A stretch of 64,000 nucleotides of DNA from Escherichia coli (GTDB lineage: Bacteria > Pseudomonadota > Gammaproteobacteria > Enterobacterales > Enterobacteriaceae), in the NCBI RefSeq assembly GCF_044647545.1, contig NZ_CP172818.1. The stretch is one strand, 5' to 3'. The notes under the pieces were generated by a model that did no database searches, was not told where the DNA came from, and saw only the letters and a program-made list of their open reading frames with translations. Each line of letters opens with the position of its first letter. Position 1 is the stretch's first letter. Shown piece by piece: positions 20,002 through 63,020 of this stretch. A program made the position numbers and the translations under genes.

Positions 20002-20038
20002 GACCATACAGGGATAATTCCCCGGTTTTTTACGCCTG

Positions 20039-25648: not shown

Positions 25649-25724
25649 GGGTCGTTAGCTCAGTTGGTAGAGCAGTTGACTTTTAATCAATTGGTCGCAG
25701 GTTCGAATCCTGCACGACCCACCA
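25649..25724 (+). tRNA. lysV: tRNA-Lys (UUU)
   Basis: 76 nt GGGTCGTTAGCTCAGTTGGTAGAGCAGTTGACTTTTAATCAATTGGTCGCAGGTTCGAATCCTGCACGACCCACCA. Confidence 0.95.
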
Positions 25725-25729
25725 ATGTA

Positions 25730-25756
25730 AAAAAGCGCCCTAAAGGCGCTTTTTTG
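25730..25756 (+). terminator. intrinsic terminator of the Val-Val-Val-Lys tRNA operon
   Basis: Hairpin agcgcc-ctaa-aggcgct followed by TTTTT. Confidence 0.65.
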
Positions 25757-25834
25757 CTATCTGCAATTTGCGAAATTGCCTGATGCGCTTCGCTTATCAG
25801 ACCAACTATGTCCGGCAGTTCCCGTGCCTCTCAT

Positions 25835-41532: not shown

Positions 41533-41955
<423 letters not shown>

Positions 41956-43002: not shown

Positions 43003-44100
43003 TCAGGCGCTTTGTGCGAGAGCAAGTTCCTCATCGCGGGTTTCAATACGCTCGTCGCCGTTATACAGCCGCGCATGTTGCAGGCCGACGAACAGACGAT
43101 CGCCGCGCACTGGCGCATCATCCCCGCGCATCACCACCGTCAAGGGTTCGTCATACCATCCCAGCGGCTGCACCACTAATTGGGTGTAGTGACCTTTCGG
43201 GCTGGCTTCCAGTACCTGTACGGGTAGCGGCGAATCGAGGCTGGTACGGCGGCTGATATCCACTTCCCACGGACGCAGGAAGAGATCCACCGGCCCCTGA
43301 TACGCAGGTGTATAGCCCAGCGGCCAGCGATGTGCGCCAACATGGAACTGCCCGCCGCGAATGGTTCCCTGCAGGCGGTTCACTTCGCCCATAAATTCGA
43401 GTACAAAACGGGTCGCTGGTTCGCGCCATACCTGGTCCGGTGCATCAGCCTGCTCGATATTGCCCTGGCTCATCACCACTACACGATCGGCTACTTCGGT
43501 CGCTTCTTCCTGGTCATGGGTCACAAACACGCTGGTGAATTTCAGCTCTTCATGTAACTGACGCAGCCGGCGACGCAACTCTTTACGCACCTGCGCATCC
43601 AGCGCGCCAAACGGTTCATCAAGCAGCAGAATTTGCGGTTCTACGGCAAGCGCGCGCGCCAGCGCCACACGCTGTTTCTGGCCGCCGGAAAGCTGCGCAG
43701 GATAGCGGTCTGCCAGATGGGCAAGCTGCACCATCTCCAGCAATTTTGTCACTTTCGCTTTGATAGCTGCGGCATTCGGGCGCTCGCGACGCGGCAGCAC
43801 CGTCAGGCCGAAAGCGATATTGTCGAACACCGTCATATGGCGGAACAGCGCGTAATGCTGAAACACGAAACCGACTTTACGATCGCGCGCATGCAGGCGG
43901 CTAACGTCGGTGCCGTGGAAGCGAATATGCCCGCTGGTTTGATGCTCCAGCCCGGCGATAATGCGCAGCAGCGTGGTTTTCCCGGAACCGGACGGCCCCA
44001 GCAATGCGACCATCTGACCAGAAGGAATATCCAGTGAGATATCGTTCAGCACCTGGGTGCGACCAAAAGACTTCTTAATATTGGCAATCTCAATGCTCAT
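43003..44100 (-). CDS. cysA: sulfate/thiosulfate ABC transporter ATP-binding subunit
   Basis: 365 aa; Walker [10 protein letters not shown]; ABC signature LSGGQKQR; Walker B LLLDEP. Confidence 0.95.
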
Positions 44101-59362: not shown

Positions 59363-60250
59363 TTATCGGGTCATGTTGATGCCGGATGCTTTCTGCTCCA
59401 GCATACGTTTCGCCAAATCCACAATGACGGCTGCGGCTTCAACCGGCGGCGTGCCGCCCTGGTGAATGTTAGAGATACAGGTGCGATCGGCCTCAACGGT
59501 GGTCGCCATACGCGGCGAATAAACGGCGTAGCAGGAGAGGCTTTCTGACTGCCCCAACCCCGGACGTTCGCCCACCAGCAGGATCACTACTTTCGCGCCG
59601 AGGATCTCACCGATCTGATCTTCAATCTTCACGCGACCATAACGAACAAAGAATGGCGTGCCGACTTTCAGCCCGGCCTGTTTCAGGCCCGCCATCAGCG
59701 GCGGCAGGATCTCTTCGTAGTTCACGGTGATCGCATCAGTTGACAGGCCATCAGAAATAACGACCTGCACGTCCGGATTAGCAACACACTGTGCTTTCAG
59801 CGCTTCAACAGCTTCTGCACACAGGCGGCGGCCCATATCCGGGCGAGTCAGGTAGAGATTTTTGTCGCTGATTTCGGAGCGGACTTCCAGCAAGCCCTGC
59901 GCTTTCACCCACTCTTCCGGTACTTCTTTCAGAACGGTATCTTTCGAACGAGAGTGATCGGCCAGGAAACGCAGCAACGCCTGGGTACGCGGACGCGGAC
60001 CGGCACGACCGGTACAAACACGGGCCACGGTGCTGCGACGCAGTTCTGTTAATACGTCTGCGCGATGCGGGTTTTCAACACCAATCCACGCTTTTGCTTC
60101 CGCAGAACCTAAATCCAGCGCGCAGCTTTCCGAGGTCACCGGTGCCGCACAGGTGGTGGTGGCGCACTTTGCTTCTGACGGCGCGGGGGCCGCTTGTCCC
60201 ATTGACGCCATCACGCTGCGTACAATTTCTTCAATCTGTTTTTGATCCAT
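59363..60250 (-). CDS. eutC: ethanolamine ammonia-lyase small subunit
   Basis: 295 aa. Confidence 0.93.
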
Positions 60251-60270: not shown

Positions 60271-61575
60271 TCAGAAGAACAGTGACGGATCGCCCGCCCG
60301 TTTGGTCAGGCGACCGTTTGCCATAATGCCCATGCTTTCCAGCCAGCGTTCAAACTCCGGTGACGGGCGCAGATTCAGTAACTGACGCACAGTGGCAGTG
60401 TCGTGGAATGCGGTGGTCTGATAGTTGAGCATGATGTCATCACCCAGCGGCATCCCCATGATGTAGTTGCAGCCTGCGGTGGCGAGCAGGATCATCAGGT
60501 TTTCGTTGAGGTTCTGGTCAGCGTCAGCGTGGTTGGTGTAGCAGCAGTCACAGCCCATAGAGATGCCGCTCAGCTTGCCCATAAAGTGATCTTCTAAGCC
60601 CGCGCGGATAATCTGGCGGTCGTTGTAGAGATACTCCGGCCCAATAAAACCGACCACGGTGTTGACGATAAACGGATCGTAATGACGCGCCAGCCCATAG
60701 TTACGCGCTTCCATCGTCACCTGGTCAGCGCCGAAGTTAGCGCCAGCGGACAGCGCCGAACCTTGTCCGGTTTCGAAGTAGAGGCAGTTTTCCCCGGCGA
60801 TACGGTTAAACTCTGCACCCACTGCGCGCGCTTCGTCGAGCATCGCCAGCTCCACGCCAAACTCTTTCAGCCCTTTTTCGCTGCCGCAAATACTCTGGAA
60901 AATCAGCCCGCCCGGTGCGCCGCGACGAATCGCTTCGATCTGGGTGGTGACGTGCGCCAGTACGCAGCCCTGAGTTGGGATGTTGAATTTGTCGATCACG
61001 CCGTAGATGGTGTCCAGCACGCGGCTTAAGTTTTCCACGTCGTCCGTCACCGGGTTGACGCCGATCACCGCATCGCCCACCCCGAAGGAAAGCCCTTCGT
61101 AGATTTGCGCAGCGATACTTTGCACGTCGTCACGGGTGTCATTTGGCTGCAAACGGGCGCTGAAGGTGCCCGGAATACCAATAGTTGTATTGGCCTTTTT
61201 GATTACCGGCATTTTCTTCGCGCCGTAGATCAGGTCCGCGTTAGAACTGATCTTCGCCACCGCCGCGACCACTTCCGAGGTCAACCCTTTGCGAGTAAAG
61301 GCAATGTCGTCAACGCTGGTTTCGTCGCTCAGGACATACTCACGCAGTTCGCTGATGCTCCAGTTTTTAATCTGGTTGTAGGCCGTTTCGTTAACATCGT
61401 CCTGAATCAGCCGCGTCACGCAGTCATCTTCATAGGCAATCACCGGATTATTGCGGATGTCCGCTACGGTCATTTCCGACAACACCTGCTTTGCCGCCAC
61501 GCGCTCCTGTGAGCTTGCCGCAGCAACGCCCGCCAGCACATCCCCCGAACGCAGTTCGTTGGCTTTAGCCAGCAC
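60271..61575 (-). CDS. eutB: ethanolamine ammonia-lyase large subunit; start taken as the GTG at 61573-61575 (434 aa), N-terminal extent uncertain
   Basis: 434-aa frame with AAGGA 10 nt upstream of the GTG; the frame stays open upstream into the eutA 3' end with no ATG/GTG/TTG. Confidence 0.88.
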   Translation of the reverse strand: MLAKANELRSGDVLAGVAAASSQERVAAKQVLSEMTVADIRNNPVIAYEDDCVTRLIQDDVNETAYNQIKNWSISELREYVLSDETSVDDIAFTRKGLTSEVVAAVAKISSNADLIYGAKKMPVIKKANTTIGIPGTFSARLQPNDTRDDVQSIAAQIYEGLSFGVGDAVIGVNPVTDDVENLSRVLDTIYGVIDKFNIPTQGCVLAHVTTQIEAIRRGAPGGLIFQSICGSEKGLKEFGVELAMLDEARAVGAEFNRIAGENCLYFETGQGSALSAGANFGADQVTMEARNYGLARHYDPFIVNTVVGFIGPEYLYNDRQIIRAGLEDHFMGKLSGISMGCDCCYTNHADADQNLNENLMILLATAGCNYIMGMPLGDDIMLNYQTTAFHDTATVRQLLNLRPSPEFERWLESMGIMANGRLTKRAGDPSLFF

Positions 61576-61616
61576 CTCTTTTACATCCTTAAACTGATAT
61601 ACATTGCCGAAAGCCC

Positions 61617-63020
61617 TCAGGAAGGAAATGCGAGTGATTTCACCGTCACCGGCACAACCGATCCGCCAAAAAGAGGCGTACCAATGTCGATATAGTCCCC
61701 CGCGCGGACAATCACTTCGTCAATGACTGCCAACGGGAGTTGTTGTAGCTGTGGGCGCAACAACATGCCCAGAGCTTTACCAAAGTCCTGCCCGGCCACC
61801 ACCAGCAGGGGATGCGGATTCGGAAAACGCGCGACGAAATCGACCAACGCGTTGATGACCGTCAGTACCGCGGCGTAACGCACAGGCAGCGAGGCGGGAA
61901 GCGCCAGCACGTACGCATCAGTTTTGGGATCAAGATCCAGTTGAATCAGCGCCTGTTGCCAGGCACTCACCAGATCCTTTTCATCAATTGGGATCGCCAC
62001 CGGCAAGTTGCGCAGCGGCAGTTGTACGCCCTCCAGCCAGATTGTGCTGCCAGAGAGCGAAAGGGTATGTGCACCCGCGCCAATCACCGTGGCGCGCACG
62101 GTTTGCGCCGGAAACTGCACGTTCATCTCACGCAGGCGCGGATGGTCATGCAGCGCCGTTGCCAGAAGCGGGCCAATATCGGCAAAACAGAACGGGTCGG
62201 CGGGCTGGTGGCGATAACATTCGCCCACGCCGCCAGAAAGCGTAATGATTTCGGGCGTAACACCTGCGGGCAGCAAACCGGTTTGCATTAATGCCTGCGC
62301 GAGCGGCGAAAGCGTTCCGTCAATCACTTCGACAATCAGCTCTGCCATCCGCCGGGTAACCTGCACCAGCTGCGCGCCGGTCAGCGAACGGGCGTCGGTG
62401 CCTGCGCCGAAGCACTCATCCACAATCATCTGCCCCGGTTTATGAGCGTAAACCACGCGCCCCTGGCTGTCGGTTTCCAGCAGGCGACCGCCGACATTGA
62501 GGCAGGCGGTGCCGCTGATTTTTCCGGCATCGAACAGGGCGTAGTTCGCGGTACCACCGCCGATGTCGATATTCAGTACCCGACACAGCCGTTGTTCAGA
62601 AAGGGTTTGCGCCCCGGCACCGTGACCGGCGATCACGGATTCGAGATGCGGTCCAGCGCTGGCGACGACAAAATCGCCCAGCGACCGGGAGAGCGTCATC
62701 ACCGCCGGGCGAGCGTTGCGGTTTTTCGCGCTTTCACCGGTGATGATGATGGCACCAGAATCAACGCTTTCCGGCGCAATGCCCGCAGCCTGATATTGCT
62801 CGAGGATTAAGGTTTTCAGTTCCGCTTCTTTTAAACCACCCTGTTTATCGACAGGGGTAAAGAACACCGGGCTTTGCCAGCTAATTTCGCGTTTGATGAA
62901 TTCGTAGCGCGGCACCTGCGACACCGCCGCACGGTTAACCAGCTCCAGGTGGGAGAAAATCACCTGGGTGGTGGTGGTGCCGATATCGATACCGACGCTC
63001 AGTAGCTGGCGAGTGTTCAC
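61617..63020 (-). CDS. eutA: ethanolamine ammonia-lyase reactivating factor
   Basis: 467 aa, GTG start at 63018-63020 overlapping the eutH stop (GTGA); ASKHA-fold ATPase motifs (IDIGTTTT). Confidence 0.92.
   Translation of the reverse strand: MNTRQLLSVGIDIGTTTTQVIFSHLELVNRAAVSQVPRYEFIKREISWQSPVFFTPVDKQGGLKEAELKTLILEQYQAAGIAPESVDSGAIIITGESAKNRNARPAVMTLSRSLGDFVVASAGPHLESVIAGHGAGAQTLSEQRLCRVLNIDIGGGTANYALFDAGKISGTACLNVGGRLLETDSQGRVVYAHKPGQMIVDECFGAGTDARSLTGAQLVQVTRRMAELIVEVIDGTLSPLAQALMQTGLLPAGVTPEIITLSGGVGECYRHQPADPFCFADIGPLLATALHDHPRLREMNVQFPAQTVRATVIGAGAHTLSLSGSTIWLEGVQLPLRNLPVAIPIDEKDLVSAWQQALIQLDLDPKTDAYVLALPASLPVRYAAVLTVINALVDFVARFPNPHPLLVVAGQDFGKALGMLLRPQLQQLPLAVIDEVIVRAGDYIDIGTPLFGGSVVPVTVKSLAFPS

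Follow-up and report, generated by a model that had tools for sequence, protein, structure and literature searches.

In the window (the whole stretch of 64,000 nucleotides of E. coli DNA analyzed here), the eutA-eutB junction is free of prophage but is not an intact ancestral sequence, since it carries a private 27-bp lesion. We regard it, with considerable confidence, as an ordinary unoccupied ST648-type junction that lost the eutB ATG together with these 27 bp, most likely as a scar of reference-guided reconstruction. The sequence comparisons show that EutB natively starts at the ATG located 11 nt past the eutA stop and that the start used in K-12 is native and not prophage derived.

On the minus strand, eutA ends with a TGA at 61619-61617, and the first canonical start remaining in the eutB frame is a GTG at 61575-61573, 41 nt past that stop, with a product of 434 aa (Table 1). 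The two genes are not separated by any integrase or phage DNA, and the eutA stop is separated from eutB-homologous sequence by 5 nt. The same coordinates, and the same lack of phage DNA, had been given in the preliminary description of this DNA. Upstream of the GTG, the eutB frame is open (...ISFLRAFGNVYQFKDVKE) and contains no ATG, GTG, or TTG in the window; the sole noncanonical start that would keep residues F8 to E19 is an in-frame CTG, with a product of 449 aa. The crossover core overlaps the eutA stop and is unoccupied. The distance from the retained Shine-Dalgarno (SD) motif to the eutB ATG is 8 nt in the canonical junction; in the window, an ATG that is out of frame follows the motif at 9 nt. 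This ATG opens a mini-ORF of 7 codons that is a product of the lesion and stops 5 nt ahead of the GTG, near which an SD-like AAGGA is found at 61590-61586. Any functioning of this mini-ORF would be putative. No further differences from the genomes of IMT16316 or MS6198 were detected in eutB residues 20 to 453, and eutL, eutK, and eutR, downstream of eutC, are all intact.

TABLE 1 Coordinates of features at and around the eutA-eutB junction in the window
Feature	Position	Strand	Basis
eutA (467 aa), intact	61617-63020	minus	ORF list; identical to eutA of IMT16316 and MS6198
CTTCCTGA, 8-bp crossover core (target duplication) of CPZ-55 and related IntZ-type prophages	61617-61624	minus	att-site alignment
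In-frame CTG overlapping the eutA stop (CTGA)	61618-61620	minus	Duplex +1.9 kcal/mol, without SD
GAGGG, native eutB Shine-Dalgarno motif, retained	61614-61618	minus	Duplex with 16S 3' end, -6.1 kcal/mol
Lesion junction, dinucleotide CT replacing 29 nt (AACGACTTATGAAACTAAAGACCACATTG)	61612-61613	minus	Sequence comparison with canonical junctions
Mini-ORF ATG TAT ATC AGT TTA AGG ATG TAA (MYISLRM*)	61581-61604	minus	Read from sequence
GTG, Val20 codon of native EutB	61573-61575	minus	ORF list; Val20 internal in all homologues
eutB coding sequence, residues 20-453	60271-61575	minus	Pfam PF06751; otherwise identical to clade-mates
eutC, intact	59363-60250	minus	ORF list

Among 5,426 complete E. coli genomes, the junction is uninterrupted in about 4,964 (~91%), with which the window, as an unoccupied CPZ-55 attachment site, shares both the core and the gene order eutH-eutA-eutB-eutC-eutL-eutK-eutR. 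In the canonical junction, the eutB ATG comes 11 nt after eutA ends, and the region spans 428 nt compared to 401 nt in the window; all uninterrupted genomes retain the bases that the window is missing. The window junction reads CCTGAGGGCTTTCGGC. Where the canonical sequence is CCTGAGGG-AACGACTTATGAAACTAAAGACCACATTG-TTCGGC, the window has CCTGAGGG-CT-TTCGGC, a net loss of 27 bp by which the spacer, the eutB ATG, codons 1 to 6, and part of codon 7 are removed. Of the conserved spacer AGGGAACGACTTA, 13 nt long when counting starts at the A of the TGA stop, the window keeps AGGG only, and the host bases on the right-hand side of the core (GGGAACGACTTATGAAACT...) are noncanonical: GGG remains, and the following 29 nt are replaced by CT. 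This junction was absent from all 5,426 complete genomes, and exact 30-mer junction scans of metagenome contigs and genome contigs returned 0 matches. The earlier view of the window as the ancestral, uninterrupted operon thus held with respect to the missing prophage, but not with respect to the sequence itself.

The junction is occupied by a prophage in about 8% of genomes. In K-12 MG1655, CPZ-55 (2558691-2565480; 6,790 bp; intZ to yffS) is inserted precisely between eutB (b2441) and eutA (b2451), as the preliminary description had stated; it was also correct in that K-12 EutB has 453 aa, starting with MKLKTTLFGNVYQ, and that its first codons are not encoded in the window. From this it had proposed that the window is ancestral, that the first seven K-12 codons were drawn from phage-junction DNA, and that the GTG (434 aa) or a noncanonical codon is the native start. 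The only point in favor of this proposal is the lack of a canonical start upstream of the GTG in the window itself, and we consider the proposal practically certain to be wrong. Alignment of the junctions placed the first codons on the host side of the core: the bases to the right of CTTCCTGA (GGGAACGACTTATGAAACTAAAGACCACATTGTTC...) were identical in three empty sites (IMT16316, 2013C-3277, and MS6198) and three occupied sites (MG1655, with both attL and attR, PCP06171, and HMDUC-17). The 8-bp duplication of CPZ-55 has been given as TCAGGAAG, with the same finding to the right of the core (PMC6379469). Moreover, ATGAAACTAAAGACCACATTG is encoded 11 nt after eutA in thousands of genomes that lack the prophage.

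The GTG corresponds to Val20, which is preceded by residues conserved in 453-aa homologues. An N terminus of the form MKLKT.LFG..YQF was found in all 13 homologues inspected and in Listeria 2QEZ; the 453-aa EutB proteins compared were from Salmonella, Citrobacter, Klebsiella, Serratia, Photorhabdus, Pseudomonas, and beta- and alphaproteobacteria. Neither this N terminus nor its ATG about 11 nt after eutA is encoded in the window. Accordingly, eutB of the window matched Pfam PF06751 (E = 3.9e-201) at profile positions 9-434, with positions 1-8 missing, whereas full-length EutB matches positions 1-434, with the domain starting from residue 12. To judge what residues 1-19 do in the structure, EutB was modeled with AlphaFold from its single sequence, but the model was unusable (pLDDT 34.5), and no usable description of the 3ABO structure was found in the literature. 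Since prophage-free and occupied sites keep the same bases and the N terminus is conserved across phyla, these comparisons show that the K-12 EutB start is native. For Rac at ttcA and Qin at ydfJ, prophage integration rewrites the 5' end of the host gene, with att-site DNA supplying a new N terminus (PMC6379469); the preliminary description had implicitly followed this model for eutB. CPZ-55, in contrast, inserts ahead of the ribosome-binding site of eutB, and the 453 codons of EutB stay unchanged.

The eutB lesion is one of several in the window. Two ST648-type genomes, MS6198 and IMT16316, are mutually 100% identical over 49.5 kb, and the window matches them exactly over this distance save for 1 SNP and 5 small deletions, by which it differs from both identically. 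All 5 deletions are located exactly at large insertions of K-12 MG1655, namely, CPZ-55, IS186C, yfeS, and two intergenic inserts, with breaks in the window/K-12 alignment at 20010/20011 (IS186C), 41948/41953 (yfeS), 46929/46926, 52576/52548, and 61611/61617 (CPZ-55). Hence, 5 of 5 lesions fall at 5 of the 6 large K-12 MG1655 insertions; at the sixth (lysV-xapR, window 25707-25767), no lesion was observed. By our own arithmetic, taking breakpoint zones of ~116 bp in 64 kb, the chance of such a 5/5 coincidence is ~1e-14. No common context explaining the 5 lesions was recognized when they were inspected by eye for homopolymers, Dam/Dcm motifs, hairpins, and flanking microhomology. No leakage of K-12 alleles into the window was detected: all 13 small indels and roughly 2,000 substitutions between this lineage and K-12 agree with ST648, and at the sole private SNP (cysA W178R, at 43569), the window does not have the K-12 base. 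Neither the YfeK nor the CysA variant of the window is on record, while the CysA allele of the clade was found in 5,390 blocks.

Lesions of the same class are present at some of these sites in an unrelated assembly. We compared the RefSeq assemblies of E. coli BS-04 and BS-01 (NZ_CP172819.1 and NZ_CP172816.1). BS-04 differs from the window in lineage, with 98-99.5% identity to K-12 versus 95-97% for the window, and has small complex deletions at three shared K-12 insertion breakpoints (eutA-eutB, yfeK-cysM, and cysP-ucpA). A further site, nupC-pdeA (IS186), shows an asymmetric terminator, possibly a fourth lesion or an allele. At eutA-eutB, BS-04 reads CCTGAG-ACAA-ACCACATTG, and the eutB ATG is removed here as well. 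The boundaries at this site differ, with a loss of 18 bp in BS-04 versus 27 bp in the window, whereas BS-04 and the window share an identical one-base loss at cysP-ucpA. Around the latter site, 81 nt of the window match BS-01 100%. In RefSeq, the damaged BS-04 eutB is started at the CTG equivalent to window 61618-61620. Natural allelic variation as the source of the BS-04 differences was dropped, given the eutA-eutB lesion and the K-12 breakpoints.

Because the private deletions each coincide with a large K-12 MG1655 insertion, we infer a technical origin of the eutB lesion, that is, a reference-guided scar. The sequence would have been rebuilt against a K-12-type reference, and the extra DNA of that reference, including the 6.8-kb prophage, would then have been removed imprecisely, leaving small scars behind. 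A simple zero-coverage trim, in which uncovered reference positions are dropped, was rejected, as the lost 27 bp match K-12 perfectly, and we could name no specific pipeline that yields these lesion boundaries. The unscarred sixth insertion (lysV-xapR) and the lack of leaked K-12 alleles also speak against such an origin. With sequence construction as the best explanation of the 27-bp loss, the accepted EutB start needs no revision.

Alternatively, the 27-bp loss could be a real, strain-private start-loss allele of eutB, in which the retained SD drives the mini-ORF, some ribosomes reinitiate at the GTG (61575) to yield EutB devoid of residues 1-19, and ethanolamine use is absent or poor. We consider this unlikely, even though the lesion is present in the sequence as given and the geometry of SD, mini-ORF, and GTG is compatible with termination-reinitiation. 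Natural eutB lesions do exist, including nonsense and frameshift mutations in codons 1-19, 424-aa internal-deletion variants, and Shigella eutG-eutB fusions. An exact look-up of the 434-aa EutB returned 7 contigs, and all 6 that were inspected had a full-length junction with a nonsense or frameshift mutation in codons 1-19. Natural decay by such early mutations or by the Shigella fusions likewise loses the authentic EutB N terminus, and gene callers then fall back on the Val20 GTG and a 434-aa product, as in the window. However, this decay proceeds by point mutations or kilobase deletions and occurs in several samples, whereas the window has a 27-bp replacement that is found in one sequence and nowhere else. 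A real allele would also leave unexplained why 5 of 5 private deletions sit at K-12 insertion breakpoints and why similar lesions recur in BS-04 at three, possibly four, shared sites, and the ratio of 5 deletions to 1 SNP, in a clade without diversity over 49.5 kb, would be an abnormal mutation spectrum. If the lesion were nevertheless real, EutB could be made only from the Val20 GTG or the CTG, without the conserved N-terminal residues, and the eutB allele would have lost its function or be strongly weakened. That the loss is real and the enzyme still works, by translation of the mini-ORF (61604-61581) followed by reinitiation at the Val20 GTG or the CTG, seems very improbable to us; if so, the strain would offer a natural case in which termination-reinitiation rescues the loss of a start codon, and EutB residues 1-19 would be dispensable.

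We likewise give little credence to a scar left by imprecise excision of a CPZ-55-like element in the ancestry of the strain, although the eut operon site is a recognized hot spot of prophage insertion (PMC6652756), occupied in the minority of genomes noted above, and the lesion starts 3 nt to the right of the 8-bp core. This proximity is uninformative, because a deletion that takes out the eutB start but not eutA can only begin within 11 nt of the core. The window junction contains no element-derived bases or CPZ-55 end sequence, the sites of the clade-mates are empty, clean, and canonical, and the four other lesions are at nonprophage sites.

What was already established about the empty eutA-eutB site, the location of CPZ-55, and the start of 453-aa EutB is confirmed here. 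In the RefSeq "complete" genome of BS-04, scars of this class gave rise to unique EutB and YfeK protein records and to an annotation with a CTG start. The biology is little changed by the junction found here, but caution is indicated: a small scar at a structural-variant breakpoint can mimic start-codon loss and prompt a wrong reannotation of a well-studied gene.

On the minus strand, the eutA-eutB junction of the window reads ...GCATTTCCTTCCTGAGGGCTTTCGGCAATGTATATCAGTTTAAGGATGTAAAAGAGGTGCTGGCT..., and the ORF list opens the longest eutB ORF at a GTG. The eutB frame stays open 5' of this codon, encoding ISFLRAFGNVYQFKDVKE, with no ATG, GTG or TTG in it, and no phage genes were found between eutA and eutB. 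The preliminary description was correct on these points, the empty prophage site among them, and also in the position it gave for CPZ-55, the cryptic prophage (intZ to yffS) of K-12: the MG1655 annotation places it at 2558691-2565480, flanked by eutB (b2441) and eutA (b2451). The empty site, the CPZ-55 position and a 453-aa EutB were already known and are confirmed here.

Two further proposals, that the GTG is the native EutB start and that the K-12 start is drawn from prophage DNA, are refuted. GTG 61575 is the codon for Val20, and an MKLK N terminus was present in 13/13 inspected EutB sequences (Salmonella Typhimurium, Citrobacter, Klebsiella, Serratia, Photorhabdus, Pluralibacter, Pseudomonas, Silvimonas, Paludibacterium, Accumulibacter, Telmatospirillum, Ignatzschineria and a 424-aa E. 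coli variant). Among the 120 homologues listed when 5.8 billion proteins were searched, a length of exactly 453 aa predominated, as is the E. coli crystal-structure sequence 3ABO; the alignment with Listeria EutB (2QEZ) starts at residue 2, with LKT.LFG..YQFK common to both. The first residue of the Pfam EutB domain is 12, and profile positions 1-8 are missing from the 434-aa form. Comparison of MG1655 attL and attR, the occupied sites of PCP06171 and HMDUC-17 (where an IntZ-type integrase or its remnant adjoins eutB) and empty sites gave CTTCCTGA as the crossover core, overlapping the eutA stop. Right of the core, GGGAACGACTTATGAAACTAAAG included, host DNA was identical with or without the prophage. 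This agrees with Ramisetty and Sudhakari, who reported that 8 bp (TCAGGAAG) are duplicated, that a spacer of 13 nt is conserved and that EutB is unchanged at 453 codons (PMC6379469); in Dadswell et al. the site is termed a hot spot for prophage insertion (PMC6652756).

The homologues also included Shigella proteins of 512-540 aa (P0038-P0049; such EutG-EutB-type proteins occurred in up to 360 contigs) with an EutG-like iron-alcohol-dehydrogenase domain joined to the EutB domain, an architecture implying a deletion that fused eutG to eutB and removed eutH and eutA. The 424-aa E. coli EutB (P0009, P0011-P0013) lacks 29 residues in frame between two DDV motifs (NDTRDDV/ENLSRV), a pattern that resembles deletion mediated by direct repeats.

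The ambiguous start is a local lesion, private to the window sequence. A 401-nt junction query matched 5,423/5,426 complete E. coli genomes; 4,964 had the match at a single place, which spanned 428 nt versus 401 in the query. Alignment of the canonical (CCTGAGGGAACGACTTATGAAACTAAAGACCACATTGTTCGGC) and window (CCTGAGGGCTTTCGGC) junctions revealed that CT stands for 29 canonical nt, and therefore 27 bp net are lost; the loss takes with it the spacer and, from eutB, the ATG, codons 1-6 and some of codon 7. The window's version, used as a centered 86-nt query, was found in none of the complete genomes, all top matches being split into two pieces spanning 113 nt, and exact scans of metagenome and species-representative genome collections returned 0 matches. 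Other 434-aa EutB calls, from public read assemblies, had a full-length junction and an early nonsense or frameshift change. Among them are six read-derived contigs (L005-L010) in which gene callers default to the 434-aa GTG start, owing to TTG-to-TAG, TAT-to-TAA or a one-base change in the codon-18 A-run; several of these may be assembly errors.

The window is an ST648-type sequence. Its clade-mates IMT16316, from a wild bird in Germany, and MS6198, from human urine in the UK, show 100% identity to each other across 49.5 kb of the region. Over the full 64 kb, the window differed from IMT16316 by only six changes, 1 SNP and 5 deletions, and the same six separated it from MS6198 within its 49.5-kb coverage. 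The deletions at 20010, 41950, 52559 and 61612 were present in none of the complete genomes, and the 81 window nt surrounding the 46925 loss had one 100% match, BS-01 (NZ_CP172816.1), which was seen to match at the cysP-ucpA site only. Privacy of the cysA SNP, whose base differs from the ST648 and K-12 alleles alike, was assessed by exact-protein look-up only: the variant YfeK and CysA proteins were absent from a large public protein collection that has the clade CysA allele in 5,390 blocks.

Features of the window at the eutA-eutB junction, private changes relative to ST648 clade-mates, and breaks in the MG1655 alignment
Feature	Position	Strand	Remarks
eutA stop, TGA	61619-61617	minus	467 aa, ORF list
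Native eutB SD, GAGGG	61618-61614	minus	kept
Out-of-frame ATG	61604-61602	minus	now 9 nt 3' of native SD
7-codon ORF, MYISLRM-stop	ATG 61604-61602 to TAA 61583-61581	minus	ends 5 nt before GTG
eutB, longest ORF, GTG start	61575-61573	minus	434 aa, ORF list
Deletion, 11 bp	20010/20011		nupC-pdeA terminator; half of bidirectional terminator gone
Deletion, 13 nt to CCTG	41949-41952		yfeK 3' end; YfeK C terminus TVPAQ-stop to TL-stop
Deletion, 1 bp	46925/46926		ucpA-cysP intergenic
Deletion, 1 bp	52559		yfeX-pbp4b intergenic
Deletion, eutB lesion	61612-61613		eutA-eutB junction
SNP	43569	minus	cysA, TGG to CGG, CysA W178R; sole private substitution in 64 kb
Break, IS186C in K-12	20010/20011
Break, lysV-xapR duplication in K-12	25767/25707
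Break, yfeS in K-12	41948/41953
Break, ~145 bp in K-12	46929/46926		cysP-ucpA
Break, ~150-210 bp in K-12	52576/52548		pbp4b-yfeX
Break, CPZ-55 in K-12	61611/61617

The window aligned to MG1655 in seven blocks, and the six breaks are the six sites of large K-12 insertion relative to the window lineage. All 5/5 window deletions fall on these breakpoints, occupying five of six, a coincidence with a chance of order 1e-14 by our arithmetic, with zone widths taken from the MG1655 alignment. The only large K-12 insertion site without a lesion is 25707-25767, a terminator-like sequence 3' of lysV (CAATGTAAAAAAGCGCCCTAAAGGCGCTTTTTTGCTATCTGC) present in one copy in the window and two in K-12. BS-04 (NZ_CP172819.1; L011/L021), a genome of another lineage that is only 4.5 Mb in size and "complete" in RefSeq, carries similar small complex deletions at three of the breakpoints: eutA-eutB (CCTGAG-ACAA-ACCACATTG), where the ATG is lost too and RefSeq annotates a 452-aa eutB from a CTG overlapping the eutA stop; yfeK-cysM (gataaaac-CCC-taatc); and cysP-ucpA, with a one-base loss identical to the window's. 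These lesions gave rise to unique EutB and YfeK protein records. At the IS186 site, its nupC-pdeA terminator is asymmetric and shorter by 3 bp, a difference that could be either natural allelic variation or a fourth lesion. The BS-04 pattern suggests a reference-guided assembly problem within public data.

The eutB lesion is thus most likely a reconstruction scar: a K-12-type genome would have guided the reconstruction of the window, as of BS-04, and the extra DNA of the reference would have been taken out imprecisely, leaving lesions. This origin is one that we infer, because no K-12 allele was found to have leaked into the window (which has the ST648 state at 13/13 small indels and all ~2,000 substitutions that distinguish K-12 from ST648), because one K-12 insertion left no scar, and because the simple model tried for the lesion boundaries did not reproduce them exactly. 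A private start-loss allele, the other reading of the same 27-bp loss, we consider improbable. If the lesion were real, ethanolamine ammonia-lyase would be expected to be lost or strongly reduced, given that conservation of the missing residues extends from Listeria to E. coli. Judging from the sequence, termination-reinitiation at the 7-codon ORF could then yield some EutB without residues 1-19, with AAGGA 10 nt 5' of GTG 61575, and initiation at CTG 61620-61618 might in principle produce a 449-aa protein, yet this codon has no SD. The main value of the finding is as a quality-control warning.
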